Positions 1 through 26,790 of a DNA stretch of 57,852 bases are shown here, in pieces; within the stretch, counting starts at the first letter, position 1, and every line of letters starts with the position of its first letter. This DNA comes from Pyrinomonadaceae bacterium. Its GTDB lineage: Bacteria > Acidobacteriota > Blastocatellia > Pyrinomonadales > Pyrinomonadaceae. The DNA lies in the NCBI GenBank assembly GCA_035438525.1, contig DAORIL010000001.1:1-57852 (forward strand), read 5' to 3'. Below the pieces are notes generated by a model, which ran no database searches, was not told the DNA's origin, and saw nothing but the letters and a program-made list of their open reading frames with translations. The position numbers and the translations under genes are program-made.

Positions 1-1840
1 CTGGGCTTGTTCATCAGTTTCCGAACCGCTGGTTGATTGTTGCTGATAAAGCGCCTCTGCAATGCGATGCGACACGCGAGTCAGAGCATCCAACTGAGCC
101 TGGAATTGATCCGAACTGTTCGATTCGATAGTTTTCCTGGCTTCGGCAATTGCCGCCTCGGCTTCGGAGATCAATCCAACCGGAATCTTCTCGCGGTTTT
201 CGTTGATGATTTTTTCGGTGTTGAAAATCATTGAATCCAGATGATTCTTGGTTTCAACCGCCTCGCGTTTACGTTTGTCTTCCTCGGCATGCGATTCGGC
301 GTCTTTCATCATCCGGTCAATTTCGTCTTTGGACAAACCCGACGAAGCCGTGATGGTGATTTTTTGTTCGCGTCCGGTGCCTTTATCCTTTGCCGAAACG
401 TTGACTATGCCATTGGCGTCTATGTCGAAAGTTACTTCAACTTGCGGCATGCCTCGCGGCGCAGGCGGAATTCCAACCAGATGGAATTTGCCTAGTGTGC
501 GGTTGTCGCTGGCCATTTGTCGTTCGCCCTGCAGGACGTGAACTTCAACCGAGGTTTGATTGTCAGTCGCCGTTGAGAATGTTTCGGATTTACGAGTTGG
601 AATCGTCGTGTTGCGCTCGATCAACCGGGTGTAAACGCCGCCCAGCGTTTCAATGACCAAGCTTAACGGTGTCACGTCCAGCAGCAGCAGGTCTTTTACT
701 TCGCCGGACAACACACCTGCCTGAACGGCAGCGCCGATGGCCACAACTTCGTCAGGATTGATTTCCGAAGAAGGTTCTTTGCCGAATAATTCCGTAACGG
801 TTCGGGCAATAATCGGAGAACGGGTTTGTCCGCCGACCAAAATAACTTTGTCAATATCGCTGGCTTGCAGCTTGGCATCCCACAGAGCTTTTTGACATGG
901 TTCAACCGAAAGTTCCACTAAATCTTTAACTAAATCTTCAAATTTTGAGCGGGTTAAAACGGTATTGATGTGTTTTGGTCCGGTTGCATCAGCCGCGATA
1001 AATGGAAGATTAATAGTGGTTTCGGTAACAGATGAAAGTTCGCACTTGGCGCGTTCTGCCGCTTCTTTTAAGCGTTGCAGAGCCAGCCGGTCTTCTTTCA
1101 AATCAATGCCGTTTTCGAGTTTAAAATTTTCTACCACCCAATTGATAATTCGCTGGTCAAAATCTTCACCACCCAAAAACGTGTTGCCTGAAGTCGAAAG
1201 AACTTCAAAAACTCCGTCATTGATTTCCAAAATGGTCACGTCAAACGTGCCGCCGCCAAGGTCATAAACAACGATTCTTTCGGAACGATTTTTGCCGAAT
1301 CCGTAAGCCAGAGCGGCTGCCGTCGGCTCGTTGATGATACGTTCAACTTCTAAACCTGCAATTTTTCCGGCATCACGGGTTGCTTGTCGTTGAAAATCAT
1401 CAAAATATGCCGGAACCGTGATAATTGCTTCCGTGACGGTCGTCCCAAGAAATTCTTCGGCTGATTGTTTCAGGCGTTGCAGAACAATTGCCGAGATTTC
1501 CGGTGGACTGTAAGTGCGGTCAAGCACACGGATATGTGCGTCACCATTTGGAGCTTCGACCACCTCGAACGGAGCAGTTTCGCGCATTTTTTCAGACTCA
1601 AGTGAGTTAAACTTTCGTCCAATCAAACGCTTAATTGCAAAAAGAGTATTAGTTGGATTGGTGACGGCTTGGCGTTTAGCGATTTGACCTACTAACCGTT
1701 CGCCTTTTTCGGTAAAACCAACCACAGACGGGGTAGTTCTACCTCCTTCTTTGTTTGGAATAATTTGAATTGTTCCGCCTTCGAGAACCGAAACGCAACA
1801 GTTCGTAGTGCCTAAGTCTATTCCAATTACTTTGCCCATA
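1..1840 (-). CDS. dnaK: Molecular chaperone DnaK (Hsp70); 3' end lies beyond the window start
   Basis: The reverse complement of 1801-1840 reads ATGGGCAAAGTAATTGGAATAGACTTAGGCACTACGAAC = [26 protein letters not shown] is encoded around 1231-1270. The frame is open to position 1. The gene lies downstream of hrcA-grpE on the same strand. Confidence 0.95.
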
Positions 1841-1866
1841 TTTATTGAGTCCTTTTTATTTTTTTA

Positions 1867-2685
1867 TTATTCAATTTCCAAGGTGACATCCGGAGATGCG
1901 GGAGTTGACGCATCTGAAACTTTAACCATTGACGGGCGAATGACTTTATCGTCAATTTGATACCCGCGCAATAATTCTTCGATTACAGTATTATGTGGTA
2001 ATTCATTGTTTTGAGCAGTAGCTACTGCTTCGTGAAAATGAGGATTAAAAGGTTTTCCGACTGAGATTATCGGCTTAATGCCCATTTCTCCTAAGACTTC
2101 GCTTAGTTGATGATTGATTAGATCGATTCCGTGAATAAATTGTTGAAAATCCGGTGATTTTACCTCAACGTGTTTGCTTGCTGAATTTAATGCCCGCTCT
2201 AAATTATCGATCACGGGTAATATTTTGACTGCCAGATTACTTAAAACACTCCGAAATATTTCGGCACGTTCGCGTTCAGTTCGATTTTTGAGGTTTTCAA
2301 AATCAGTGCTGCGGCGACGCATTGTTTCGGCTATCTCTTGTTTTTCAGCCGACATTTTTGACATTTCCGAATTGAGTTTTTCAATTTCTGCTTCGAGATC
2401 AGAAAATGTTTTAGAATTCGGTTTGTAAAAACTATTGGTGATCTGGGGAACGGTATTATCCAGATCTTTATTAGGTGTAAATGTCTCAAGTAACTTTTCG
2501 AGTTCTGCTAATTCATCTTGGGCGAAGTCCGTTTCTTCTATTTCAACTATCATTTGCGAAGAAATATCGAGGTCTCGTTCTTTTGCTTCTAACTCTTTGA
2601 GAAAGGCATCTATCGAACCCGAATCATTTAAGTTCGAGTTATTAGAATATTTGGGTTTATTCATTGAATCGTAATCAGGGTTCAT
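1867..2685 (-). CDS. grpE: Nucleotide exchange factor GrpE
   Basis: 272-aa ORF with a coiled-coil N-terminal half. The GrpE-type C-terminus reads ...PFNPHFHEAVATAQ...LLRGYQIDDKVIRPSMVKV. It sits between hrcA and dnaK. Confidence 0.9.
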   Translation of the reverse strand: MNPDYDSMNKPKYSNNSNLNDSGSIDAFLKELEAKERDLDISSQMIVEIEETDFAQDELAELEKLLETFTPNKDLDNTVPQITNSFYKPNSKTFSDLEAEIEKLNSEMSKMSAEKQEIAETMRRRSTDFENLKNRTERERAEIFRSVLSNLAVKILPVIDNLERALNSASKHVEVKSPDFQQFIHGIDLINHQLSEVLGEMGIKPIISVGKPFNPHFHEAVATAQNNELPHNTVIEELLRGYQIDDKVIRPSMVKVSDASTPASPDVTLEIE

Positions 2686-2701
2686 TTTGATAGTTTAATA
2701 G

Positions 2702-3835
2702 TTAATTTTTCTTTGAGACCGAGTATTCATCAAGCATCATTTTTTCGAGGATTTTGGAAATATAGCTGACGATCGCAATCATTCGCGGATATTCAATCCG
2801 GGTTGGACCTAAGACGCTCAAAGTTCCTAATGTGTCGCCTTTTCCGATGCGGTAAGGAGCCGTTATCAAAGTGCAATTCTGAAGCGAAGAGGTTGAATTT
2901 TCACTTCCGATAACAACCTGAACATTTCCTTTAGCGGATAAATCGCGTCCCAAGCATTCATTCAAGATCTGCATCAGACGTGATTTTTCTTCAATCGTGC
3001 GAAGCAATTCGCGCAACCTTTCAAAATTGGAAAAATCAGGCTTAGTGAGAATGTTCAAAGTTCCGTCAACGTAAATTTCGCCGATAGTATCTTTTTCACT
3101 CTCAATACTTTGTGAACAAAGTATCATTGCCGTTTGCAATAATTTGTCAAAAAGTGCTTTTTCTTCGTGCATTAGTCGAAGAATTTCACTCCGGATCATC
3201 GCCAGACTTTTGCCTGCAAATTCGGCGTTGATATAACGCGAAGTGCGGTCAAGGTCTTCCTGGCTAATAGTTTCTTCGAGCCGAATAATTTTGTTATGCA
3301 CAATATTCGGAGCCGAAACCATCACCACCAAAATTCGTTTGTCCGATAGGTTGGCAAACTGAATATGCTGCAAATAGTCATTGGCTAAATTCGGCGAAAT
3401 GACGATTCCAACATTATCTGAAAGAACTGAAAGTAACTGCGAAGTGCGTTCCATCAAACGATCAGATTTATCGGAAATATCTAATTCGCTTAAACCAAGC
3501 TCTCGATTTATCAAATTCAAATCTTCGGTGGAAAGACTCAAAACCCCAAGGAGATTATCTACATAAAACCGATAACCTTTGTCAGTCGGAACGCGCCCGG
3601 CGGAGGTATGGGGCTGTTCGACAAAACCGCCATCTTCCAGCTCGCTCATTACGTTGCGAATTGTTGCTGAGCTCCAACCCGCTGAATGCGCAAACCTTTC
3701 TGCGACAACTTTTGAGCCGACCGGCTCGCCTGAGATAAGATGTTCGCTGATAATGGCTGAGAGGACTATTTGCCCGCGTGCATCAGGAATCGGGGAATCG
3801 TTTTTGAAACTCAAATTCGAGTCACGAACAGGCAT
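2702..3835 (-). CDS. hrcA: Heat-inducible transcription repressor HrcA
   Basis: 377-aa ORF with an N-terminal winged-helix region (LSAIISEHLISGEPVGSKVVAERF...SSATIRNVMSELEDGGFVEQPHTSAGRVPTDKGYRFYVD). The C-terminus reads ...GTLSVLGPTRIEYPRMIAIV. It is the first gene of the hrcA-grpE-dnaK operon. Confidence 0.9.
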   Translation of the reverse strand: MPVRDSNLSFKNDSPIPDARGQIVLSAIISEHLISGEPVGSKVVAERFAHSAGWSSATIRNVMSELEDGGFVEQPHTSAGRVPTDKGYRFYVDNLLGVLSLSTEDLNLINRELGLSELDISDKSDRLMERTSQLLSVLSDNVGIVISPNLANDYLQHIQFANLSDKRILVVMVSAPNIVHNKIIRLEETISQEDLDRTSRYINAEFAGKSLAMIRSEILRLMHEEKALFDKLLQTAMILCSQSIESEKDTIGEIYVDGTLNILTKPDFSNFERLRELLRTIEEKSRLMQILNECLGRDLSAKGNVQVVIGSENSTSSLQNCTLITAPYRIGKGDTLGTLSVLGPTRIEYPRMIAIVSYISKILEKMMLDEYSVSKKN

Positions 3836-3962
3836 TTCTTTTAATTGATTTGAAGCAATCGCGAAAGGGCGTTATGCTCCTACTAATTGAATATCATTTT
3901 AACTGATGAAATGTCAAGGTTTTATCGTTAAAAAATGATTAACAGTGATAAACTTTTTCTAA

Positions 3963-4733
3963 ATGAGTGTTGAAATAGAAGAACTTCGGCAAATTTACCA
4001 GGAATTAATCATTTCCATCAAAAATCCACGCCCGCTTCCAAATTTGAAGATCGAATTTTATCCGTATGTCGGCATAAACAATCGAATTCGTCTGCGTGAC
4101 GATTTAATTCAGGTTAAACTTTCCGATCTTTTGCAGGATGCGCCGTTGGAATTACATCGGGCATTAGCCGAAATTTTGCTCCGTAAACTTTATCAAAAAA
4201 AAGTCCCCGTGAGTGTTTCACAAATCTTTCAGGATTTTACAAAAAAAGCTGAAATACGCGAAAGATCAATCGAATCCCGAAAGTCGCGCGGACGTAAAGT
4301 TTTGATCGGTTCACAAGGCACACATTATGATTTGGAACAAATTTTTACGCTGCTCAATCAAATTTATTTTCAAAATGCGATTCCGAAACCAACTTTAACC
4401 TGGTCCGGTAAAAATACTTATCGGATTTTAGGGCATCACGATGCGACTCATAATGCCATTACTATCAGCAAATCTTTAGACGATAAACGAGTGCCTCGTT
4501 TTGTGGTTGAATGTGTGATGTATCACGAAATGCTGCATATCAAACATCCGACTAAATACCTTAACGGCAGACGTTACAGCCACACACCGGCTTTTCGCCG
4601 TGATGAAAGGGAATTTGCTTTTTTTGAAGAATCCGAAGCGTGGATCGAAAATCATTGGGCAGCTTTTTCAAAAGGCAAAAAGCAAAAGGTCAAAAGTAAA
4701 AAAGGTTTTTTGCAAAGGTTGTTGGATTTTTAG
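3963..4733 (+). CDS. HExxH metal-dependent hydrolase-like protein (DUF45/SprT-like flavour)
   Basis: 256-aa ORF containing YHEMLHIKHPTKYLNGRRYSHTPAFRRDE, an HExxH zinc motif followed by H. Family assignment is tentative. Confidence 0.55.
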   Translation: MSVEIEELRQIYQELIISIKNPRPLPNLKIEFYPYVGINNRIRLRDDLIQVKLSDLLQDAPLELHRALAEILLRKLYQKKVPVSVSQIFQDFTKKAEIRERSIESRKSRGRKVLIGSQGTHYDLEQIFTLLNQIYFQNAIPKPTLTWSGKNTYRILGHHDATHNAITISKSLDDKRVPRFVVECVMYHEMLHIKHPTKYLNGRRYSHTPAFRRDEREFAFFEESEAWIENHWAAFSKGKKQKVKSKKGFLQRLLDF

Positions 4734-6782: not shown

Positions 6783-7568
6783 ATGAGTGAAACTATATTC
6801 AAAGACAATATTTTACAAGGCAAAGTCGCGCTTGTAACAGGTGGCGGAACGGGAATCACGGGCGGCGTTGCCCGCGCACTGGCAGAAGCAGGCGCAAAAG
6901 TAGCGATTACTTCGCGCAAAATCGAAAATCTGGAAGCGGCGGCAAAAGTCATCAATGACAACGGCGGCGAGTGTTTTCCGGTCGCTTGTGATGTGCGTGA
7001 TTTTGAAGCGGTTGAAAAAGCAATTGCCGCGACCGTCGAAAAGTTCGGCAAAATTGATATTGTCGTCAATGGTGCAGCAGGTAATTTTCTCTGCTTTGCC
7101 AAAGAACTTTCGCCAAACGGTTTTGGAACGGTGGTTGATATTGATACCAAAGGAACTTTTAATGTCTGCCGTGCCGCTTTTGAAGAACTCAAAAAATCGC
7201 AAGGTCAAATCTTAAATATCAGTGCCACGCTTCATTATCTTGCAACACCGATGCAAATTCACGTTTCGGCAGCAAAAGCAGGCGTGGATGCTATTACGCG
7301 AAACCTTTCGGCAGAATGGGGACGTTACGGAATCCGAGTTAATGGAATCGCGCCGGGTCCGATTGAAGACACCGAAGGAATGCGAAGATTAGCAACACCT
7401 GAAGTTTTGACGCAAATCAAAAAACGAATTCCGCTTGGAAGATTAGGCAGAATTGCCGACATTGAAAATTCGGCATTATTTTTATGCTCAGATGCTGCCA
7501 ATTATATCAACGGTGTGACGCTCGTTGTTGACGGCGGTCAATGGTTGTTGGGAACGAGTTTGGGTTAG
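6783..7568 (+). CDS. SDR family oxidoreductase (2,4-dienoyl-CoA reductase-like)
   Basis: GKVALVTGGGTGITGG is a Rossmann TGxxxGxG motif. Length is 261 aa, and the downstream S...AAKAG region is typical of classical SDRs. Confidence 0.85.
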   Translation: MSETIFKDNILQGKVALVTGGGTGITGGVARALAEAGAKVAITSRKIENLEAAAKVINDNGGECFPVACDVRDFEAVEKAIAATVEKFGKIDIVVNGAAGNFLCFAKELSPNGFGTVVDIDTKGTFNVCRAAFEELKKSQGQILNISATLHYLATPMQIHVSAAKAGVDAITRNLSAEWGRYGIRVNGIAPGPIEDTEGMRRLATPEVLTQIKKRIPLGRLGRIADIENSALFLCSDAANYINGVTLVVDGGQWLLGTSLG

Positions 7569-16979: not shown

Positions 16980-18359
16980 TTATTGCTTTTCCAAAATTTT
17001 TGCTTTTAATTTTCCGTTAGCGAGCCGGATTTGCACATTTTCATCTATTTTTATTTGTTCAATATCGTGCAAAATTTCACCTTTTTCATTTTCGGTAATT
17101 GAATAACCACGTTTCAAAACCGACAATGGCGAAAGTGCATCCAGCGAAGCCATTTTGATTTTCAGTTTTTCATCACTCGAATCAATAACATCCTTAATGG
17201 CCGAGATTTGACGTTGTCTCAAGATTGCCAGTTTTGTTTGATTTTCCGAAACTTTAGCCGCTAATTTGATTGGCGAAAGACGATTTCGTAATAGTTCCAG
17301 CCGCTTTTCATCTTTTCGTAATTTATCGTCAAAATTTGATTCTAATCGGTCGTTCAAATCTTCGATTTCATAACGCCAATCTTTTATTTTCTGCGGGAAT
17401 TCATGGAAAACCGAAGCAAATGCCAATTCCTGCAATGAGTTCCGTGATTGCAAAATCTTGTAATTGATTGATTGAAAAAGGTCATTGGTGCGCTGAAAAA
17501 TAAATGCTTCAATATTTTCTTCGTTTTCAGCCACAATTTCGGCGGCGGCGGAAGGCGTAGCGGCACGAACATCAGCCACAAAATCGGCAATTGTAAAATC
17601 AATTTCGTGACCAACGGCGGAAATAACAGGAATTTTGGAATTACGAATTGCTCGGGCGACCCTTTCTTCGTTAAATGCCCATAAATCTTCTGATGAACCG
17701 CCGCCGCGCCCGACAATCAGCACATCAATCTTTTCGGATGCAGTTTCGTTAAATTTATTGGCAAGCTTGATGGCTTTTTCGATTTCTTCGCCTGCTGTTT
17801 CGCCTTGGACACGGGTTGGAATAAGCGTGATGTGAACCGTTTTTGTCCGTCGCCCTAAAACATTCAAAATATCGTGAAAAGCCGCTCCATTGGGAGAAGT
17901 TACCACCCCAACCCGTTTAGGAAAATACGGCAAACGGCGTTTTAATTCCTCATCAAATAAGCCTTCTTTGGCAAGTTTGGCCTTGATTTGCTCAAACGCC
18001 ACTTTCAATGCGCCTTCGCCAACCGGTTCGAGCGATTCAACCAAAATCTGATATTCGCCTTTTGGTTGATAAACGGAAAGTTTTCCCCGCACTCGCACCT
18101 GCAAACCATCAAAAGGCTTAAACCGAATCCGCAGATTATTGCGAATATAACAAGCCGCTTTTAATTGTGAAAAACCGTCGTGCAGAGTGAAATACCAATG
18201 CCCCGAATTTGCGGCCATAAAATTGGTGATCTCACCTTCGAGCCAGACCGATGCAAAACGCCTTTCCAGTTCGCCTTTGACCTGTTCGTTTAATTCCGAA
18301 ACAGTTAGTGGACGGCGTTCTTCTTCGTCAAATAGTGAATCTAAAAGCGATGATTTCAT
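16980..18359 (-). CDS. xseA: Exodeoxyribonuclease VII large subunit
   Basis: N-terminal OB-fold region (VWLEGEITNF...SGHWYFTLHD), GVVTSPNGAAFHDILNVLGRR, LIVGRGGGSSEDLWAFNEE, and a coiled-coil C-terminus; 459 aa. Confidence 0.9.
   Translation of the reverse strand: MKSSLLDSLFDEEERRPLTVSELNEQVKGELERRFASVWLEGEITNFMAANSGHWYFTLHDGFSQLKAACYIRNNLRIRFKPFDGLQVRVRGKLSVYQPKGEYQILVESLEPVGEGALKVAFEQIKAKLAKEGLFDEELKRRLPYFPKRVGVVTSPNGAAFHDILNVLGRRTKTVHITLIPTRVQGETAGEEIEKAIKLANKFNETASEKIDVLIVGRGGGSSEDLWAFNEERVARAIRNSKIPVISAVGHEIDFTIADFVADVRAATPSAAAEIVAENEENIEAFIFQRTNDLFQSINYKILQSRNSLQELAFASVFHEFPQKIKDWRYEIEDLNDRLESNFDDKLRKDEKRLELLRNRLSPIKLAAKVSENQTKLAILRQRQISAIKDVIDSSDEKLKIKMASLDALSPLSVLKRGYSITENEKGEILHDIEQIKIDENVQIRLANGKLKAKILEKQ
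18315..18359. repeat. Direct repeat copy A (45 bp) = first 15 codons of xseA
   Basis: GCGTTCTTCTTCGTCAAATAGTGAATCTAAAAGCGATGATTTCAT is identical, letter for letter, to 19069-19113. Confidence 0.95.
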
Positions 18360-18420: not shown

Positions 18421-18449
18421 TTGACAAAGATTAAAACTATTATCATAAT
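18421..18449 (+). promoter_or_regulatory. Sigma-70-type promoter of the parDE cassette
   Basis: TTGACA (18421-26), a 17-nt spacer, then CATAAT (18444-49). An AGGAGG RBS and the ATG at 18475 follow. Confidence 0.6.
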
Positions 18450-18474
18450 TTGCTTGGTTAGGAGGTTAAAAATT

Positions 18475-18735
18475 ATGGCAACAATGACAATTTCTTTACC
18501 TGAACCGATGCGCGAATTTGTAGAAGCAGAAGTTTCTAGCGGAAATTATGGCTCGGCAAGCGAACTGTTTCGTGAACTCGTCCGTGAGCGACAAAAACGA
18601 AAAGCCCAAGAGCGTTTGGAAACTCTGCTTTTAGAAGGATTAGAAAGCGGTCAACCAATTGAAGTAACGCAAGATTATTTGGACGCAAGACGGCAAGCAT
18701 TACGCGAAAAACTCGAAAAGGGAAAAGTTGATTGA
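18475..18735 (+). CDS. parD: Type II antitoxin, ParD/CopG-like
   Basis: MATMTISLPEPMREFVEAEVSSGNYGSASELFRELVRERQ... is a ribbon-helix-helix ParD pattern. AGGAGG lies 8 nt upstream of the ATG at 18475. The gene overlaps the toxin start by 4 nt (ATGA). Confidence 0.8.
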   Translation: MATMTISLPEPMREFVEAEVSSGNYGSASELFRELVRERQKRKAQERLETLLLEGLESGQPIEVTQDYLDARRQALREKLEKGKVD

Positions 18736-19061
18736 TGAAACTTGCCTTATTTTTACTGCCTCGTGCCGAAAAAGATATTGATTCTCATTGTGAATTCTGG
18801 GCAGAAAAAAGTGTAAAAAAAGCCTTAGCATTTGATCAGGCGGTTTTTGAAACTTTTGACCGTTTATGCGAGATGCCGCTTATCGGGACAGAACGAAATT
18901 ATTCAAGTCCAAAACTTTTCGGAATTCGGATATGGTTTGTCAAAGGCTTTGAGAAATATCTCATTTTTTACCGGAGCTTTGGTAATTATCTGGAAATTGT
19001 GCGGGTTTTGCATTCCGCCCAAGATACTGATTCTATTTTGGAAGAGGAATCTATCAACTAA
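18732..19061 (+). CDS. parE: Type II toxin, ParE/RelE family
   Basis: ...LPRAEKDIDSHCEFWAEKS...FETFDRLCEMPLIGTER...KYLIFYRSFGNYLEIVRVLHSAQD is the ParE signature; 109 aa. Confidence 0.8.
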   Translation: MMKLALFLLPRAEKDIDSHCEFWAEKSVKKALAFDQAVFETFDRLCEMPLIGTERNYSSPKLFGIRIWFVKGFEKYLIFYRSFGNYLEIVRVLHSAQDTDSILEEESIN

Positions 19062-19068
19062 ATAGATC

Positions 19069-19113
19069 GCGTTCTTCTTCGTCAAATAGTGAATCTAAAA
19101 GCGATGATTTCAT
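19069..19113. repeat. Direct repeat copy B (45 bp); dead duplicate of the xseA 5' end
   Basis: Identical to 18315-18359. On the minus strand it would encode MKSSLLDSLFDEEERDLFS*. Its ATG overlaps the TGA of the methyltransferase gene (ATGA). Confidence 0.95.
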
Positions 19114-19955
19114 AAATTAAAAGGCAAAGTAATTTGAGTTTTTTCATCTTTCATCGGCAAAGAATAGTTTGAAATAAAAAGCTCTTTTCCTATTTGATCT
19201 GAAGATTCGGTCACATTTCTCATTCCATAAGTTAAATTCCAAGCGGTGATTTTGGCAAACGAAAAAAGTTCACGAATATACGGCGAATCATCATAGGTTA
19301 TAAGCCATTTATGCTGACATTTTCGCAGATTTTTAGCAAATCTTTCGTGATCGAATATTTTATGAAACTGTCCGTTTTTTCCGTAAAGTGCAGAATCTGT
19401 AGCGGAAAAATACGGCGGATCAAGAAATAAAAAGACATTTTCTCCACCAGCATTAACAACTTCTTCGTAATCAAGATTAGTAATTTTCACCTCCCGCAAA
19501 ACTTTTGGTAATTCGACTAATCTTTCAATACTAGAGTTCGTAAAACGCTTTTGATAAGCCTGATTTGAAAAGCCCCCTGCTTCGGTCGTGCCTGAAAAAG
19601 TGATGCGATTAAAGATAAAAAAAGTGGCAGCTAATTCTATTTCATTAAAATTTTCTTTGTTATCGCGTAAGAATTTGTGAAGCGATTTCCCATCAGAATA
19701 TTCGTTTTTCCAACTCCAAATTTGTTCGATCAACTTTTCAGAATTTAGCTGATTTTGCTGCCAAAAAACTATTAAATCCCTATAAATATCGTTCATCCAA
19801 AATTTTTTCGCGGGAAATTTTTGTTTGAGAAAAACAGAGATCGAGCCGCCGCCGACAAAAGGTTCTCTAAATTCATCAAACGAAGGAATTAATCCGACAA
19901 TTTTTTCAACTGCCCGACTTTTTCCGCCCGGATAACGTAATGGACTGCGAATCAT
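19110..19955 (-). CDS. Dam-family (D12 class) N6-adenine DNA methyltransferase
   Basis: LRYPGGKSR, FREPFVGGGSI (the FxGxG AdoMet motif) and FLDPPYFSA (DPPY catalytic motif) occur in alpha-group order; 281 aa. Confidence 0.85.
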   Translation of the reverse strand: MIRSPLRYPGGKSRAVEKIVGLIPSFDEFREPFVGGGSISVFLKQKFPAKKFWMNDIYRDLIVFWQQNQLNSEKLIEQIWSWKNEYSDGKSLHKFLRDNKENFNEIELAATFFIFNRITFSGTTEAGGFSNQAYQKRFTNSSIERLVELPKVLREVKITNLDYEEVVNAGGENVFLFLDPPYFSATDSALYGKNGQFHKIFDHERFAKNLRKCQHKWLITYDDSPYIRELFSFAKITAWNLTYGMRNVTESSDQIGKELFISNYSLPMKDEKTQITLPFNL

Positions 19956-20023
19956 TTTTATATTTTACCTGAATTGATTAAAAATTATTTTCAAAGATTT
20001 TTGTGATAACTCTAGATAAAAAT

Positions 20024-23000
20024 TTAATTGGCTGTTTCTCCGTGTTCTAAAATTATCTCAAAATTATTCTCTTTTGCTTCTTGAAATAGTTTTTTGACAA
20101 AGCCTGTTTGATTTTTAGAAAAACTATTGACTTGCAAAAAATCATCCACTTTTTGCGCTTCGGCATTAGAAGAAATTGATCCTTCCAGTTTGTTTGAAGT
20201 CAATTTCAGAGCAACTTTTAATGCGACATTTTCGCTTCCAACTTTAACATTTTTGAGATTGGTGTAAATCATCATTTTGACTAAACCGTCTTTGATATCA
20301 GAGGCAGAGGGTATTTTGGCGCGAATAGTATGTTTAGCTTCCATTAGTGTCAGATTTTTACCTTCAATTTTAGTTTCGTCACAAGTGAAATAATACAATC
20401 CGCCGTCTTTATCACTGATTGTTACACGAGCCTTGGTGTCGCTTGAGAGGGCTTCTTTGGGTTGAATCGTGGCAAATTCGCGTCCCTGGGCTTTTTGCGA
20501 TTTTTGGCGCGAAAGTGTGCGGAAATCTTCTAAACTTTTGCTGATTTTGATGACAAAATTATCAATTCCTTTTTCATCGTGAAGTGTAACACTAGTTCGC
20601 TTGGCAATTTCTGCGTAAGCCGTCTTTGCTTTTTCCGCGATTTGGGCAATTCCCTGCAATTCTTTCAAATTCCATTCAGTTGCAGTTCCTTTGAAATTTT
20701 GCAGCTCGTTTAATTTATTCAAAATGAATGCGTTATCAAATTGCTGGTCGGTCAATTCATTTTTTGAATCTCGTTGAGCCTCATTGTAATAACCAAGAAT
20801 CAGATACACGTCCAACAGGTTCATCAACGAAAAAGTATCAAACTGCAAAAAGTCGCGTTCGCCGTCTTTGCCTTCGTCTTTGATAATTGGAATGATTGTT
20901 GCTTTTCGGGGGGATGTTAAAGTGTTGTAAATGCGTTCGTAGGGGTAAGAGCGAGTGCGTTTTGGCGAAACCCAGCGGCTAACCGCCAGCTCGCCAAACA
21001 AAAAGGCAGGCGGAGATTTATTAACATCAAAACCTTCTGCGCTAATTTTTTTTAAAGTATTGCCAAGTGACGTTTTGTAATGAATATCGGTAATTTCGCC
21101 CGTAATTTCCGGTGGTGGTTGGGGAATGGAATAAGAAATCGGGGCAAATTTGAAATCGTTTGGTTCTTCCTTTTTTAAACTACTGACTACTTTGTTTGAA
21201 ACTTCCGTGACTGCACCGAGATTGACAAAAGTTCCTAAAACATTGACCTTAACTCTTAAACGAGGCGAAGCGGAATCTCCGACATCGGAACTATCTGAGC
21301 GAAACGTCACTGTGTAAGCAGTTCTTAATTGAACTACGATGTCTTCGTAAGCCTTTTGTAAATCGTCGAGACGGCGAATCGGATAATAAACTCCGCCCGA
21401 AACTTTGGCTAATCGTGCGCCTTCTTCTTCGGCTTTGGAAGTCAAACCCATATATCGCGTTCGCAACGGATCGACGGTTTGGCTGGCACTATTGGTTGCC
21501 GATGCCGCCACTAATCCGGAAGGAACATAAAGCGGATAGATGAGTGCGCCGCTTTCCTGAATTGAGCCAAGCAGAGAATCGAACGGCAAAAATGAGCGAT
21601 TATCGTCACCGTCAGATAAAACTACGAGAGCAGTCCGTTCGCCTTTGAAAGGTTTGAGAGTATCAACCAAAGTATAAGCAATTGCATCGTAATAAGCCGT
21701 TGCGCCGCCTGCATCAAAGGTGTCGAGCGATTCGGATAGCTGATTGCGATTGGTCGTAAAAACTGAGATTTGTTTTACGTCTTCGCTAAAAATGACAATC
21801 GAAATTTTGTCATTGGGACGCATTGTATTGAGAAAATTCCGCGCCGCTTTACGAATAAAGTTGACATAATTCTCGACACTGCCTGAAACATCCAACAACA
21901 AGACCAAATTAAAAGGTGCAGTAACTGGTTCAACTGATAAAATCTCGCGTTCCTTGCCGTATTCGGTAACCACAAAATCTTTTTTTTCGAGTCCGCCAAC
22001 CGCCCGGTTATTTGAATCAACCACTCGGGCAATAACTTGTTTGATTTTGGCAACTCCGTTATTTTCAACGCGCGGTTTATCAACTAAATTCGGAGTAATC
22101 CGGCGCGGCGGCAAAGTTTTTAGATAATCGCCGAAATATTTGGGGCTGGCACGGCGAATAGCTTCGGTCAGCATTGAATCACCACTGCGAACTATGGCTT
22201 TAGCGGCTTCGGTCAACGGGCGTTCGCGCAAATCAGAAGAAACTTCGGTCGGGCTGACATTGAGTAAAATGATTCCGCGTGCAGTCGAAAATTTTAATGA
22301 GATTGCGTTTCCATCAATCGTCTTTTTCTTATCTTTTTTGTCGTCCTCTTTGGTCGGAGTCGGTTCAGGAGTTGGAGTTGGTTCGGTAGTTTCGGTTGCG
22401 TTCTCTTTTTCTTTGGCTGCTTTTTCGGCTTTTGCTTTTATGGCTTCTTCGTCCACAAATTTGCCTTTAATTTCAAAACGTCCGGCTGATTTCTCTTTGA
22501 CTTCTTCGATGTCAATATCGCTCAGGTAACGCGGACGAGATTGAGTCCACATAAATTCATATTTGATATTTTCCAGAGGAATATTAGTCGCAATCGTTCC
22601 GGTATCAGTAAAAACTTCTGCCGAAAAAATATTTCCGTCAATTGATACTTCGCCTTCTTCGGTTTCTATTTTAAGCCGAACGCGTTCAGGAACCTGAACA
22701 GTTAGATCAAGTCTGGTTTTAGCATTTTGCGGATTAACGTTGATTTTTATTTTTCCGCCAGCAGAATTTATTTCAAAATCTTTTTCGGTGAGAGTCTTTG
22801 AACTGTTAGCAATTAATAAAACTTTGTCGTCTTCGCCTTCTTTGGTTGCTTTTGCCTCGACTTTAACCCGCCCATAAAAATTAGTAACGTCAATCAAACC
22901 GTCCGCTTTAAACTTAAACTCTTTTTGAAAAGTTTGGGCGTTGACAGTAAGCAATAAGCAGTAAGCAGTTAGCAGTAGAAAACAAAAACTCCGCCATCCC

Positions 23001-23047
23001 AATTTTGAATTTTGAACTTTTAATTTTGAACTTTGAACTATCTTCAT
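20024..23047 (-). CDS. Fusion protein: signal peptide + adhesin-like beta region + VWA domain (Acidobacterial VWFA type) + C-terminal PD-(D/E)xK restriction-endonuclease-like region
   Basis: The VWA MIDAS motif is LLLDVSGSV, with ...VVLSDGDDN downstream. A typical VWFA-family ending ...SPRLRVKVNV lies near aa 610-620. The ORF then continues for about 370 aa with no stop and no in-frame ATG/GTG/TTG. This region contains RWVSPKRTRSYPYERIYNT and TCDETKIEGKNLTLMEAKH (a D...ExK pattern). The start overlaps the kinase stop (ATGA). Confidence 0.7.
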   Translation of the reverse strand: MKIVQSSKLKVQNSKLGWRSFCFLLLTAYCLLLTVNAQTFQKEFKFKADGLIDVTNFYGRVKVEAKATKEGEDDKVLLIANSSKTLTEKDFEINSAGGKIKINVNPQNAKTRLDLTVQVPERVRLKIETEEGEVSIDGNIFSAEVFTDTGTIATNIPLENIKYEFMWTQSRPRYLSDIDIEEVKEKSAGRFEIKGKFVDEEAIKAKAEKAAKEKENATETTEPTPTPEPTPTKEDDKKDKKKTIDGNAISLKFSTARGIILLNVSPTEVSSDLRERPLTEAAKAIVRSGDSMLTEAIRRASPKYFGDYLKTLPPRRITPNLVDKPRVENNGVAKIKQVIARVVDSNNRAVGGLEKKDFVVTEYGKEREILSVEPVTAPFNLVLLLDVSGSVENYVNFIRKAARNFLNTMRPNDKISIVIFSEDVKQISVFTTNRNQLSESLDTFDAGGATAYYDAIAYTLVDTLKPFKGERTALVVLSDGDDNRSFLPFDSLLGSIQESGALIYPLYVPSGLVAASATNSASQTVDPLRTRYMGLTSKAEEEGARLAKVSGGVYYPIRRLDDLQKAYEDIVVQLRTAYTVTFRSDSSDVGDSASPRLRVKVNVLGTFVNLGAVTEVSNKVVSSLKKEEPNDFKFAPISYSIPQPPPEITGEITDIHYKTSLGNTLKKISAEGFDVNKSPPAFLFGELAVSRWVSPKRTRSYPYERIYNTLTSPRKATIIPIIKDEGKDGERDFLQFDTFSLMNLLDVYLILGYYNEAQRDSKNELTDQQFDNAFILNKLNELQNFKGTATEWNLKELQGIAQIAEKAKTAYAEIAKRTSVTLHDEKGIDNFVIKISKSLEDFRTLSRQKSQKAQGREFATIQPKEALSSDTKARVTISDKDGGLYYFTCDETKIEGKNLTLMEAKHTIRAKIPSASDIKDGLVKMMIYTNLKNVKVGSENVALKVALKLTSNKLEGSISSNAEAQKVDDFLQVNSFSKNQTGFVKKLFQEAKENNFEIILEHGETAN
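22946..23040. repeat. Two heptamer tracts (AGTAAGC-type x5 and AATTTTG-type x5-6) that encode the signal peptide of the VWA fusion gene
   Basis: 22946-22980 reads AGTAAGC AATAAGC AGTAAGC AGTTAGC AGTAGAA. 23001-23040 reads AATTTTG AATTTTG AACTTTT AATTTTG AACTTTG AACTA. On the coding strand these give MKIVQSSKLKVQNSKL...LLLTAYCLLLTV. Confidence 0.85.
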
Positions 23048-25293
23048 CTTTTTTCTGTGCTGCTTACTCTACCTGATTGTATCAGACGGTCGCGGATTCG
23101 ATGTTGCCAATTGGTGCGGGGATGTTCGGCATCTTCAAATTTTGTTAATAAATCCTGCATTGATTCGCCACCTGCCTGACGGGTTTTGAAATAAAGTAAC
23201 GCTGTTATTATAGACGTAAAAGAGGAAATAAGAAAAATTATCGGCATCCAGATCAATTCAAAAATCGCGGTTCCGATTCCGACTCTTTTTTCCATTCTTC
23301 TCATTTTTTCTTTATCTGATTCGGTATCTTTATCATCATCAGAGATTTTAACTCCATGAGGTCCGACAGAAATATTTACATTGTCGTCATCTGCCGCCTT
23401 TTGTTCAATTTTTGTGCTTTCTACAGGTTGCGGCGAAAATCCTTTGATAATTCCCTGAATCGCAAAACTTATGATAATTGCTAAAATAGTTGGAATCAGA
23501 TAAACGATCAGCGAAGTCCCTAAAACTGTTAAAAAGGAACGTTTGACAAGTTCGACCGAGCGCCGAAAGGCTACTCTGCCGCTTAATCCTTCCATCATTA
23601 TCGATGGAGTAATCAGCATATATCTCGCCGAAAGATAAAGTCCCGGGAAAAAGCAAAGAACGAATCCGAATAAAGCTAACAAAGTAGAAACCGTGACAGT
23701 TTTCAAAAGCGGTTTCCACTTTTTTCTTAACTCACTAAAGGCATTTCTGATCTGTATCGGACGCAGCGGAACTGCCAAAATTTGCGCAACGATCCAGGTT
23801 GTAGCACCAACCAACATCGTTGAATAAAACATTTTGACAAAGAAATCAGCAAAAGAGAGAACAATCTTGGTAGTTATCCAGACTGCATTAGCAGATACGG
23901 CTTCTGTTGCCACCAGTAGATCAACTACAACCTTGGCAAAATTAGTAATAAAAAAAGGAATTGCCAGGATCAATGAGAGCAATAGAAATTTTGGCAAATG
24001 TTCGCCGTAAATGGCTAAAGCTTTTGTAAATAAAGCTCCGATTCCTTCGGAATGAGCGCGTAAAGTGCTGGCGAAAGCTTCGGCAGTTTGCGGACGCTCA
24101 TCCGTATTTTTTGCCAATGCCGAAAATAATACTTTCTTGACTTTGCGCGGAATCTTTTTTGCTTCCAAAGGTGGCGGTGCAACTTCTTTGTGCGAATCCA
24201 TTACTTCGGTAAAATTACCCGTAAAAGGTGTTTTGCCCGACAGCATTTGATACGCAATAATCGCCAAACTGTAAATATCGGAACGAGGCGTAAGTTTTTC
24301 CCCGCGGCACTGTTCCGGCGACATATAAAGCGGTGTGCCTAAAACCGCTCCGACTCTGGTTAATTCGGCAGTTGCAGGATTTCCCAAAGCTTTATCAGTA
24401 TCTGCATTTGAAATTAACCTGGTGCCTTTTTCATCCTTTTCAATCAGTTGCGTTCCTTTATTTTCGTCTGGAAAAATCGCGGTTCCATCTTCCAAAGAAA
24501 TTTCGGCGGCAGGGAAAATTGCCGTTCCTTTTTCATCACTGACCGAGAGAATTGCCGTTCCTTTTTCATCGTTAGCAGAAAAAATTGCGGTTCCTTTTTC
24601 ATTAACAGGATTTTGAATCAGAGTTCCGCCTTCACCGATCATTGTTGCACTGCGATTTTCGATAATTGTCTGAGCATTGGTCTGATCAGCCAGAGTGTCG
24701 CCGTGCTGCAAGGCTTGAGTCGGCGTAGTTGTGGTCGGATTGAGCAACGCTTTTTCGTTTTCGTCACTGCTCATCGGTTCTTCGAGCTTGGCAATCCCAA
24801 AATCTAAAACTTTTACCGTATAACCGCCGCGCTGATTCGGTTCAAGCCAAATATTATCAGGTTTTAGATCACGGTGAATAATGCCTTGACCATGCGCTTC
24901 GTGAACTGCTGAACAGACTTGTTCCAAAATATCGAGCGTCCATCCCAGAGGCAGTTGTTTTTCTTCTTCTAAAATTTCGCCGAGCGTGCAGCCGTCAAGA
25001 TATTCCATCACCAAATAGGCGACGCGCCCTTGCGAAGTCTCGGCAAAACCAAAATCGGTCACATTAACCACGTTTGGATGTCTTAACCTGCCTGCCGCCC
25101 GTGCTTCACGACGAAACCGTTCGACAAACTCAACACGCTGCATAAATTGCGGAACGATAACTTTTAGTGCCACAGGTCTTTCCGTTCCAATGTGCATTGC
25201 TAGATAAACGGCACCCATTCCGCCGCGCCCAAGCTCTCTTTCGATTGAATATTTACTGTCGAGCGTTTGCCCGATGAGACTTTCTAAATTCAT
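23044..25293 (-). CDS. Ser/Thr protein kinase with repeat-rich linker and multi-pass C-terminal membrane domain
   Basis: GRGGMGAVYLA...ALKV, HRDLKPDNIW, DFGIAK and GTPLYMSPEQ are Hanks kinase motifs. The linker contains EKGTAIF-type repeats. About 6 TM segments lie in the C-terminal half. Confidence 0.9.
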   Translation of the reverse strand: MNLESLIGQTLDSKYSIERELGRGGMGAVYLAMHIGTERPVALKVIVPQFMQRVEFVERFRREARAAGRLRHPNVVNVTDFGFAETSQGRVAYLVMEYLDGCTLGEILEEEKQLPLGWTLDILEQVCSAVHEAHGQGIIHRDLKPDNIWLEPNQRGGYTVKVLDFGIAKLEEPMSSDENEKALLNPTTTTPTQALQHGDTLADQTNAQTIIENRSATMIGEGGTLIQNPVNEKGTAIFSANDEKGTAILSVSDEKGTAIFPAAEISLEDGTAIFPDENKGTQLIEKDEKGTRLISNADTDKALGNPATAELTRVGAVLGTPLYMSPEQCRGEKLTPRSDIYSLAIIAYQMLSGKTPFTGNFTEVMDSHKEVAPPPLEAKKIPRKVKKVLFSALAKNTDERPQTAEAFASTLRAHSEGIGALFTKALAIYGEHLPKFLLLSLILAIPFFITNFAKVVVDLLVATEAVSANAVWITTKIVLSFADFFVKMFYSTMLVGATTWIVAQILAVPLRPIQIRNAFSELRKKWKPLLKTVTVSTLLALFGFVLCFFPGLYLSARYMLITPSIMMEGLSGRVAFRRSVELVKRSFLTVLGTSLIVYLIPTILAIIISFAIQGIIKGFSPQPVESTKIEQKAADDDNVNISVGPHGVKISDDDKDTESDKEKMRRMEKRVGIGTAIFELIWMPIIFLISSFTSIITALLYFKTRQAGGESMQDLLTKFEDAEHPRTNWQHRIRDRLIQSGRVSSTEKR

Positions 25294-25981: not shown

Positions 25982-26368
25982 ATGTTCAAAAAGTATCTAA
26001 CCATCATTCTAACTTTTCTAATTCTCAATCTTTCGCTCAGTGCAGTTGCCTTTGCCGAAACTAAAGCTGAGAAAGAGGCAAAGTTCGCGGATAAAGTAAA
26101 AGTAAATGTCACCAAACTTGGAACGGGAACGGACGCGAAAATTCAAGTTAAGTTAAAAGACGGAACGAAATTAAAAGGTTATGTCAGCCAAATCAACGAA
26201 AATAGTTTTGTCGTAACTGATGAAAAGACAGACGTTGCAACTGAAATTCCATATCCAAAGGCAAAACAAGTTAAGGGAAATAATTTGAATACGGGTGTGA
26301 AGATTGCGATTATTGCTGGAATCTTTGTTGCCGTTCTTTTAGCTGTTTTACATGCGAGAGGTGAGTAA
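25982..26368 (+). CDS. Small secreted/C-terminally anchored protein, paralog 1
   Basis: Signal peptide MFKKYLTIILTFLILNLSLSAVAFA, a Lys-rich beta-like core and a C-terminal TM segment. It resembles the next ORF closely by eye. Confidence 0.65.
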   Translation: MFKKYLTIILTFLILNLSLSAVAFAETKAEKEAKFADKVKVNVTKLGTGTDAKIQVKLKDGTKLKGYVSQINENSFVVTDEKTDVATEIPYPKAKQVKGNNLNTGVKIAIIAGIFVAVLLAVLHARGE

Positions 26369-26400
26369 ATACTTATCAATCAGCAATTTAGGAAAAATCT

Positions 26401-26790
26401 ATGTTCAAAAAATATCTAACGCTAATCTTAACCGTTTTACTTATCAATTTATCATTAAACGCATCTATTTTTGCCGAAACTAAAGCGGAAAAAGAAGCGA
26501 AATTTGCCCAAAAAGTTAAAACGCAAATTACCAAACTTGGCTCTGGAACTGAGGCAAAAGTTGAAGTTAAACTCAAGGACGGCACAAAGTTAAAAGGCTA
26601 CATCAGCAACATTGGCGAGGAAAGTTTCTCCGTCACGAATGACAAAACAGGCGCGGTTAGTGAAGTTCCTTATCCGAATGCAAAGCAAGTTAAGGGGAAT
26701 AATTTGAATACGGGTGTGAAAATTGCGATTACTGTTGGAGTCATTATCGCAATAGGATTCATATTGTTGGCTACGGGGCATGATAATTAG
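26401..26790 (+). CDS. Small secreted/C-terminally anchored protein, paralog 2
   Basis: MFKKYLTLILTVLLINLSLNASIFAETKAEKEAKFAQKVK... is a tandem duplicate of 25982-26368, including the upstream GGAAAAATCTATG. Confidence 0.65.
   Translation: MFKKYLTLILTVLLINLSLNASIFAETKAEKEAKFAQKVKTQITKLGSGTEAKVEVKLKDGTKLKGYISNIGEESFSVTNDKTGAVSEVPYPNAKQVKGNNLNTGVKIAITVGVIIAIGFILLATGHDN

Follow-up and report, generated by a model that had tools for sequence, protein, structure and literature searches.

The stretch of DNA analysed here, 57,852 nt from a Pyrinomonadaceae bacterium of the phylum Acidobacteriota (assembly GCA_035438525.1, contig DAORIL010000001.1, positions 1 to 57,852), is referred to throughout as the window. 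On its minus strand lie, one after the other, a gene for a membrane Ser/Thr kinase (23044-25293), an open reading frame (ORF) of 1007 codons in which a secreted VWA protein runs on, in one uninterrupted frame, into a domain of the type II restriction endonucleases (20024-23047; the fusion ORF), and a gene for a DNA methyltransferase (MTase; 19110..19955). We call this nuclease domain, together with its stand-alone homologues of about 365 residues, X. An earlier reading of the bare letters (the sequence-only reading) had already placed all three ORFs on this strand, and had described both the ATGA in which the kinase stop and the fusion start overlap and the 68 bp that separate the fusion ORF from the MTase gene downstream of it; all of these features are there. 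The kinase (749 aa) has its catalytic domain at the N-terminus (Pfam Pkinase, E=4.6e-44), followed by five transmembrane segments predicted between residues 439 and 689 by a hydropathy scan.

The fusion protein begins with what reads as a Sec-type signal peptide (residues 1-37; 22937..23047, minus strand as for all parts of this ORF) of the classic form proposed before, consisting of a K-rich n-region and a hydrophobic core with a predicted cleavage site between VNA and QT. A beta-rich, adhesin-like region (residues ~38-200; 22448..22936) and a TP-rich linker (residues ~205-245; nt 22313-22435) follow, both read from the sequence and both without a Pfam match at E<=0.1. The VWA domain occupies residues 337-602 (21242..22039); the ORF scores 119 bits (E=2.9e-34) against TIGR03436, acidobact_VWFA, well above the curated cut-off of 81.25, Pfam VWA_2 matches residues 381-480 (E=8.9e-12), and the MIDAS motif DVSGS lies at residues 386-390 (nt 21878-21892). 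Score and motif together assign this part to the acidobacterial VWFA family, in agreement with the VWA domain of the sequence-only reading. After the VWA domain the frame continues for about 400 residues without a stop, through the end of the VWA family and a variable linker, as delimited by comparison of junctions (residues ~603-645; 21113..21241), and then through X itself (residues ~646-1007; 20027..21112), which corresponds to the full length of the stand-alone enzymes.

The organism of the window is abundant in activated sludge. The fusion is real and not an artefact of assembly, as Logan contigs from four sludge metagenome runs, belonging to four different studies, cover the ORF and the VWA/nuclease junction without gaps and without indels; the stop or frameshift between two genes that would have undone the sequence-only reading appears in none of them. 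That reading had also proposed to look in orthologues for a stop near the end of the VWA part. A single TAA, in the same frame, does separate the two genes in one relative (L004; relatives are numbered by locus), and the genes are separate in some others too, as might be expected if a missed stop or an indel had merged them in the window; 35 other species, however, carry the same in-frame fusion instead, with different linkers, and we give an artefact of this kind practically no credence. A scan for promoters and terminators returned nothing above shuffled background, and one wastewater metatranscriptome held a single 231-nt contig identical to the MTase gene and none on the fusion ORF, which is uninformative on co-transcription.

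Searches of Pfam, NCBIfam and PDB sequences with X gave no match, and only restriction endonuclease models of PADLOC recognised it: REase_II (PDLC03572) aligns to residues 650-1001 over model positions 10-352 of 371 at E=5.6e-72. The proposal of a nuclease-like C-terminal region is thereby strengthened to a homologue of restriction endonucleases. When 1.8 billion representative proteins were searched with a profile, 575 clusters were retrieved, most of them proteins of about 365 aa that start exactly where X starts and only a few of them fusions of about 1000 aa; cluster look-ups showed the short relatives to be named "hypothetical protein" or to carry no informative name, and a tblastn search with X against a plasmid collection gave no match. 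The candidate PD-(D/E)xK motif, D890-E891 ... E903-A-K905 (20333..20380, minus), has the form D890-x12-E903-x-K905, one residue shorter than the D-x13-E-x-K spacing originally described, and all 84 homologues in the alignment have the D, E, E and K of this motif unchanged. AlphaFold models of X are confident (AF2 pLDDT 87.7, and also 88.3), and when the X model and its catalytic subdomain were compared with the PDB by Foldseek the best matches, all of them weak, were almost exclusively PD-(D/E)xK nucleases (McrC, R2 endonuclease, Can2, arenavirus and bunyavirus endonucleases, OkrAI). Based on the motif and on this enrichment, a PD-(D/E)xK fold is likely, and homology identifies X as the endonuclease of a widespread, uncharacterised type II restriction-modification (R-M) system.

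The MTase (281 aa; minus strand) belongs to the alpha class with the D12 fold (PF02086, E=3.5e-37), with an FxGxG motif (residues 33-37) and a DPPY motif (residues 179-182). The D12 assignment of the sequence-only reading therefore stands, but its Dam-family label does not: the protein scores 93.2 bits against the Dam family TIGR00571, under the cut-off of 114.85, and 38.8 against the E. coli Dam equivalog, for which the cut-off is 441. Among proteins of solved structure it is closest to M.CbeI of Caldicellulosiruptor bescii (PDB 7M6B; E=3.4e-85, 289 bits, 49% identity over 265 aligned residues), as against E=8.8e-10 for DpnM (2DPM), and the two proteins share the same best PADLOC model (PDLC03247) and have DPPY at the same residues, 179-182. 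M.CbeI is annotated as adenine-specific, yet it was found experimentally to produce N4-methylcytosine (m4C) in GGCC (PMC8616854, PMC3425538), and its gene lies 45 bp from that of its partner, cbeI (PMC3679861). A Dam-type enzyme making N6-methyladenine (m6A) in GATC was considered and rejected on these grounds; the window MTase is probably an enzyme of the M.CbeI/DmtB type, making m4C at GGCC. The m6A motif that the sequence-only reading had suggested looking for in methylome data would probably not be found, since the nearest characterised relative makes m4C.

It was also considered whether X might be a homologue of CbeI itself, and this was rejected, as CbeI belongs to the RE_HaeIII family (PF09556, PADLOC PDLC03430) and hhalign gives a probability of 0.2. 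The two systems share much else, having R and M in that order on one strand, a short distance apart, the same MTase family and, as far as can be deduced for the window pair, the same target, GGCC; they differ in that CbeI is a free-standing gene of 326 aa from a family unrelated to PDLC03572, whereas X is the C-terminal domain of a VWA protein with a signal peptide. As CbeI has no detectable similarity to X, one MTase family serves two unrelated nucleases.

The ordinary form of the X system can be seen in other phyla. Scanning of species-representative genomes revealed at least 564 with a relative of X, from which 80 loci were kept. In the 33 loci from Bacteroidota, Ignavibacteria, Endomicrobium and other groups, wherever downstream sequence sufficed, a stand-alone X was followed on the same strand by a member of the same MTase family (31 of 31 loci), which is its immediate neighbour in 30 of them and lies at a distance of 1.9 kb in L079; in Kapabacteria and Alistipes, for example, the second gene is a D12 methyltransferase of about 280 aa. 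The R-then-M order that had been recognised in the window is therefore that of the family at large. The stand-alone pairs, two of which are from Acidobacteriota, resemble the window in sequence (X 45-49% identical, MTase 57-72%), in this layout and in the depletion of GGCC from their hosts, but differ in that X starts with a native M-x-I-x-G N-terminus without a signal peptide, that there is neither a VWA nor a kinase neighbour, and that the MTase is always there where the flank is visible. By its endonuclease-family homology and its adjacent MTase the window pair can be classed with the type II R-M systems; in place of the free cytoplasmic endonuclease of such systems it has a domain whose predicted localisation is outside the cytoplasm.

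A different arrangement characterises the family from which the window comes. It is seen in 51 loci, from 51 species of Pyrinomonadaceae or unclassified Acidobacteriota with the window counted separately, in all of which X lies directly behind the VWA gene. The kinase precedes the VWA gene wherever the 5' flank is long enough, with the single exception of L022, so that the kinase/VWA/nuclease order, which one of the three possibilities raised from the sequence had invoked, is a conserved architecture. Downstream, xseA, the gene for the large subunit of exonuclease VII (16980..18359 in the window, minus), serves as a conserved anchor, being found in 40 of the 51 loci (tblastn, 61-89% identity) at a variable distance. 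In 35 loci, as in the window, X is fused in frame to the VWA protein, through linkers that differ in length and in sequence; in eight it is a separate gene with a signal peptide of its own, whose AxA-type site stands right before the native N-terminus; in seven it lacks a start codon and its frame is -1 relative to that of the VWA gene; and in one (L001) there is a frameshift inside the VWA gene. Comparison of junctions with L002, L003 and L004, and with the 51 loci, shows that the space taken up by residues ~603-645 in the window is filled, in relatives with separate genes, by a stop codon, an intergenic spacer and the signal peptide of the nuclease. All 44 readable VWA N-termini have a hydrophobic 12-mer that scores 2.0 or more, in most of them followed by an AxA-type site and Q, and appear to be signal peptides; every configuration of X is therefore predicted to route the nuclease out of the cytoplasm.

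Several of these junctions have features of their own. A linker motif, F-A-P-[LW]-R-E-[IN] (DNA about TTTGCGCCTTTGCGGGAAAT), occurs about 15 residues before X in 11 relatives (L003:8124, L017:3087, L018:6947, L020:6947, L024:6932, L027:6953, L029:6932, L034:474, L039:6938, L041:6956 and L046:6956), and in L003 it falls within the signal peptide of the separate-gene X, which suggests that the signal-peptide and fused forms of X are derived from one another. In L013 the linker between VWA and nuclease holds an insert of about 170 bp (6804-6972) with terminal inverted repeats of 31 nt, whose k-mers reach a metagenome depth of 1000-4000, the baseline being about 34; this repeat, which resembles a miniature inverted-repeat transposable element, is read through in frame. 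The frameshift of L001 (L001:7920-7990, on the same contig as L010), the closest relative of the window but one, lies within the VWA domain around residues 511-520, and the gene caller has split the fusion into products of 506 and 486 aa; either a genuine pseudogene or a mistake in the assembly could account for this.

The seven loci with X in the -1 frame form a class of particular interest. Their junctions (L013:6794-6806, L027:6827-6842, L045:6911-6923, L038:6891-6902, L041:6866-6878, L035:6680-6710 and L030:6962-6975) each contain a homopolymer run, A8-A9 in six loci and T9 in the seventh, typically GTAAAAAAAAACTAA, and in five of the seven a 0-frame stop comes straight after the run. All seven loci of the class have such a run, as do 5 of the remaining 44 loci (Fisher p=7e-6). 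X is intact in these species and its dN/dS (omega) between members is 0.09-0.16; purifying selection of this kind implies continued translation of X, for which -1 ribosomal frameshifting or transcriptional slippage would be needed, and the seven relatives are thus candidates for programmed recoding of one or the other type. In the contigs of run X28 both the homopolymer and the frame of L013 are preserved in a strain that differs from it by about 4%, and the L027 junction is likewise reproduced in contigs, probably from the same data set. The arrangement is reminiscent of dnaX, the IS3-family transposases and the tail chaperone G/GT of phages, with which it shares a slippery tract, A_AAA_AAA or T_TTT_TTT, where the upstream ORF ends and a downstream ORF that lacks a start codon and is under purifying selection; it differs from them in that the -1 class is known here from sequence alone, and the window itself is fused in frame.

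Selection on X is not confined to this class. In 24 of 25 close pairs, including pairs in which both species lack the MTase and pairs in which both belong to the -1 class, the dN/dS of X is 0.07-0.17, comparable to or below that of the VWA part, the remaining pair being too saturated to estimate; with its catalytic residues intact, X is by these measures functional and under purifying selection. The MTase has fared differently. It is kept between X and xseA in 13 of the 51 loci and absent from 28, in each of which the whole interval from X to xseA is visible, and in L064 (9317-9487) a remnant of 57 residues (residues 203-259) lies between xseA and an intact X, in what looks like a snapshot of the decay of the MTase with the nuclease retained. 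That relatives should have the same long architecture and no adjacent MTase had been named in the sequence-only reading as a sign against its proposal; 28 species show precisely this, and the identity of the nuclease is not affected by it.

These data bear directly on the idea that an R-M module landed by accident on the 3' end of the VWA gene, and that fusion to an exported protein merely disposes of a nuclease which has no function outside, with the MTase left as an orphan. Fusion to an exported protein would indeed take the nuclease off the chromosome, and the MTase is dispensable in 28 species. However, X is kept in all 51 species across deep divergence, at the low dN/dS given above, with no internal stops and with invariant catalytic residues, and three different routes all preserve its expression together with its export; a useless domain would decay or be deleted, and here it is the MTase that goes. 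We regard detoxification by export as very unlikely. Of the scenario put forward in the sequence-only reading, the landing and the export are therefore in line with the comparative evidence, and it is the silencing of the nuclease that has to be given up.

The history of the module in the family appears to have been vertical. In a neighbour-joining tree the MTases of Pyrinomonadaceae form one clade whose only outsider is L061, and they are 65-76% identical to the window MTase, as compared with 57-68% for those from outside the family, except L061 with 72%. This last locus (L061:2474-6991), from Acidobacterium, has an unfused X-M pair upstream of xseA with no VWA or kinase gene upstream and 9 GGCC where 41 are expected, and it probably represents the state before fusion. 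In the simplest history, the sequence of events may then have begun with the insertion of a GGCC-specific R-M module upstream of xseA, between it and the kinase-VWA operon, in the ancestor of this Pyrinomonadaceae clade; the upstream VWA gene would next have captured the nuclease, X losing its own start codon, and the genome would have been purged of GGCC at that point or already before. The MTase would finally have been lost repeatedly, becoming dispensable because the host genomes were purged of GGCC, whilst the lineage of the window would have kept it and have partly re-accumulated the site. R-M pairs that come apart over evolution are familiar from orphan DNA methyltransferases, the products of R-M decay; here the direction is reversed, with the nuclease always kept and the MTase repeatedly lost.

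Counts of 4-bp palindromes were compared with a trinucleotide Markov expectation, and GGCC is the most depleted of them in all three pooled groups of hosts: 58 were observed and 577 expected in hosts of the stand-alone, classical X-M pairs, 3 and 564 in Pyrinomonadaceae with the MTase, and 5 and 1767 in Pyrinomonadaceae without it. No fewer than 47 of the 51 Pyrinomonadaceae loci are free of GGCC, with between 5 and 75 expected in each. In the window there are 12 against 139 expected, a depletion second to that of GTAC. The homology of the MTase to M.CbeI and the depletion in the hosts make GGCC the probable recognition site of X and of the MTase. The three closest relatives of the window have no MTase and no GGCC in 47 kb; the window has an MTase and 12 sites, as would fit a functional and protective enzyme. 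Other palindromes are avoided in the window as well (1-57852: GTAC 0 against 58 expected, CATG 28 against 108, GATC 108 against 234), and the avoidance of these three, which is common to the relatives, suggests other long-resident restriction systems.

Lasting avoidance of GGCC suggests that the chromosome meets a GGCC nuclease, and one way in which it might do so is that X is after all a cytoplasmic enzyme, released by proteolysis or, as the sequence-only reading had also considered, made by internal initiation, so that the window would hold a normal R-M pair, with its MTase present and adjacent, and the fusion would be a curiosity of annotation. Nevertheless, the part of the fusion ORF between residues 581 and 682 is free of in-frame ATG, GTG and TTG codons (the absence of starts had been remarked on earlier, over a slightly too wide range of about 600-690); the first such codon is a TTG at residue 683 without a Shine-Dalgarno-like sequence, initiation at which would cost X about 37 conserved N-terminal residues. 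Where X is a separate gene in the relatives it starts with a signal peptide and not with the native M-x-I-x-G, others having the frameshift site instead, and in the 28 species that have no MTase a free nuclease would be lethal unless its target sites were absent. Internal initiation thus finds no foothold in the window, and a cytoplasmic X is, in our judgement, highly improbable.

The reading that we favour, and consider likely, is that of a type II R-M module which has been domesticated, its nuclease now acting outside the cytoplasm in a physiological role that we infer. In the window the 1007-aa secreted VWA protein is the only product of which X can form part, and in relatives the same end is reached by an X with its own signal peptide or by one to which a -1 frameshift or slippage site, placed where the VWA gene ends, gives access. 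The VWA-X protein, located in the periplasm or on the surface of the cell, would cut non-self double-stranded DNA containing GGCC before its entry into the cytoplasm, self DNA being spared through the absence of GGCC and, in the window, additionally through m4C methylation; the membrane kinase, whose translation is coupled to that of the VWA-nuclease protein, may serve as an anchor for this protein or react to it. Of all this, the homology, the gene order, the fusion, the selection on X and the depletion of sites are shown by the data, whilst export, specificity for GGCC, cleavage outside the cytoplasm and a connection with kinase signalling are inferred. The scheme in its complete form, that is, extracytoplasmic restriction in which self is told mainly by elimination of the target site, with the membrane kinase as anchor or reporter and with the ratio of VWA to VWA-nuclease protein set by frameshifting in some species, is put forward tentatively, as a possibility that we would at present rather doubt than assert.

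An exported nuclease could also have other uses, as a secreted weapon against the DNA of competitors or as an enzyme for scavenging phosphorus and nitrogen from environmental DNA or for remodelling the DNA of the matrix, in which case the cell's own released DNA would be immune, being GGCC-free. The order of signal peptide, adhesin-like region, VWA domain and C-terminal nuclease, with a protective gene just downstream, would suit a weapon, as would a self genome that is nearly free of targets. There is, though, no translocation domain and none associated with type V, VI or VII secretion systems (T5SS, T6SS, T7SS) among the Pfam matches, X is a conserved orthologue and not strain-polymorphic in the way of toxin tips, the conserved coupling to a membrane kinase is left unexplained, and a cutter specific for 4 bp would be a poor scavenger. 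Such uses seem unlikely to us, and a polymorphic toxin system, considered separately, was rejected, X being orthologous in 51 species (dN/dS 0.07-0.17) and no Pfam domains of the T5SS, T6SS or T7SS type being present.

Our preferred reading, a domesticated nuclease acting outside the cytoplasm, should nevertheless be considered with caution, as a number of points weigh against it. Export is a prediction from sequence, as are the nuclease activity and specificity of X; the models of X match no solved structure at E<=1e-3, and X has no detectable similarity to either CbeI or HaeIII. The depletion of GGCC was counted on loci of about 15 kb and compared among X-bearing genomes only, and it is not unique, GTAC and CATG also being strongly avoided in Pyrinomonadaceae. 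Most importantly, an X kept wholly away from the chromosome would leave no reason for a genome to be free of GGCC. The site is still absent from MTase-less lineages despite a dS of about 1, and such persistent purging implies that some self DNA continues to meet a GGCC nuclease; leakage before export, the uptake of DNA into the periplasm, DNA in the matrix or elsewhere outside the cell, and a second GGCC system are candidates for the encounter.

In the window a ParD/ParE toxin-antitoxin pair (18421..19061, plus; Pfam ParD_antitoxin E=3.9e-7, ParE_toxin E=1.3e-11) separates the MTase gene from xseA and is encoded on the strand opposite to theirs; the features for which relatives were screened did not include it. 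The interval from X to xseA varies among the relatives, where it holds a gene of 385 aa with no assigned function (L001), a DUF4919 gene (L002) or nothing (L003). The 45 nt between the convergent ParE and MTase stops (19069-19113) show about twice the depth in three runs, where contigs can be joined in alternative ways at either end, and in one run a further alternative contig join is found at 20034, immediately 3' of the fusion stop; either the stretch has a second copy, it would seem, or the MTase/ParDE segment is polymorphic among strains. Next to the kinase gene on its upstream side, two tandem paralogous ORFs of the other strand (25982-26790) encode proteins of 128 and 129 aa, each with a signal peptide and a C-terminal hydrophobic segment. 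A block of DUF58, ECF sigma factor, anti-sigma factor and DUF4097 genes precedes the kinase-VWA-nuclease genes in L002:1-3548, L003:1-3591 and L004:1-3726; it is conserved in more distant relatives and is not beside the kinase in the window or in its closest relatives.

The components of the locus are of known kinds, namely a type II R-M pair, a VWA protein and a Hanks-type kinase; it is their combination for which the literature offers little precedent. Nucleases that act on DNA outside the cytoplasm are well known, among them EndA (endonuclease I), Dns/Xds of Vibrio and NucB, which are periplasmic or secreted and non-specific. These resemble X in having a signal peptide and, if our reading is correct, in the place where they act, and they differ from it in having other folds, no sequence specificity, no cognate MTase, no VWA fusion and no coupling to a kinase. 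In the 1980s the EcoRI and PstI endonucleases were reported to be periplasmic. A literature search on exported restriction enzymes or on GGCC avoidance in Acidobacteria gave nothing relevant, and the words periplasm, secreted and signal peptide are all absent from a review of R-M biology published in 2025. Searches likewise returned no exported restriction endonuclease fused to a VWA protein, nor family-wide conservation of one, and for such a fusion no repeated loss of the MTase with the nuclease kept, no near-total elimination of the target and no frameshift-dependent variants.

Some consequences are practical ones. X would supply a family of GGCC-specific enzymes that has neither a Pfam model nor a solved structure and that might serve as a reagent, the label "DNA adenine methylase" carried by members of this MTase family probably names the wrong modified base, and the -1 class adds a probable new case of programmed frameshifting. 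For the biology of the Pyrinomonadaceae the implications are wider. R-M systems usually decay by losing the nuclease first, and these bacteria discard the MTase and keep the nuclease; restriction enzymes are usually regarded as cytoplasmic and as restrained by their MTase, and here a whole family appears to export one under selection. If the enzyme is indeed active outside the cytoplasm, this would be both a new way of separating self from foreign DNA and a new place in which to do so.

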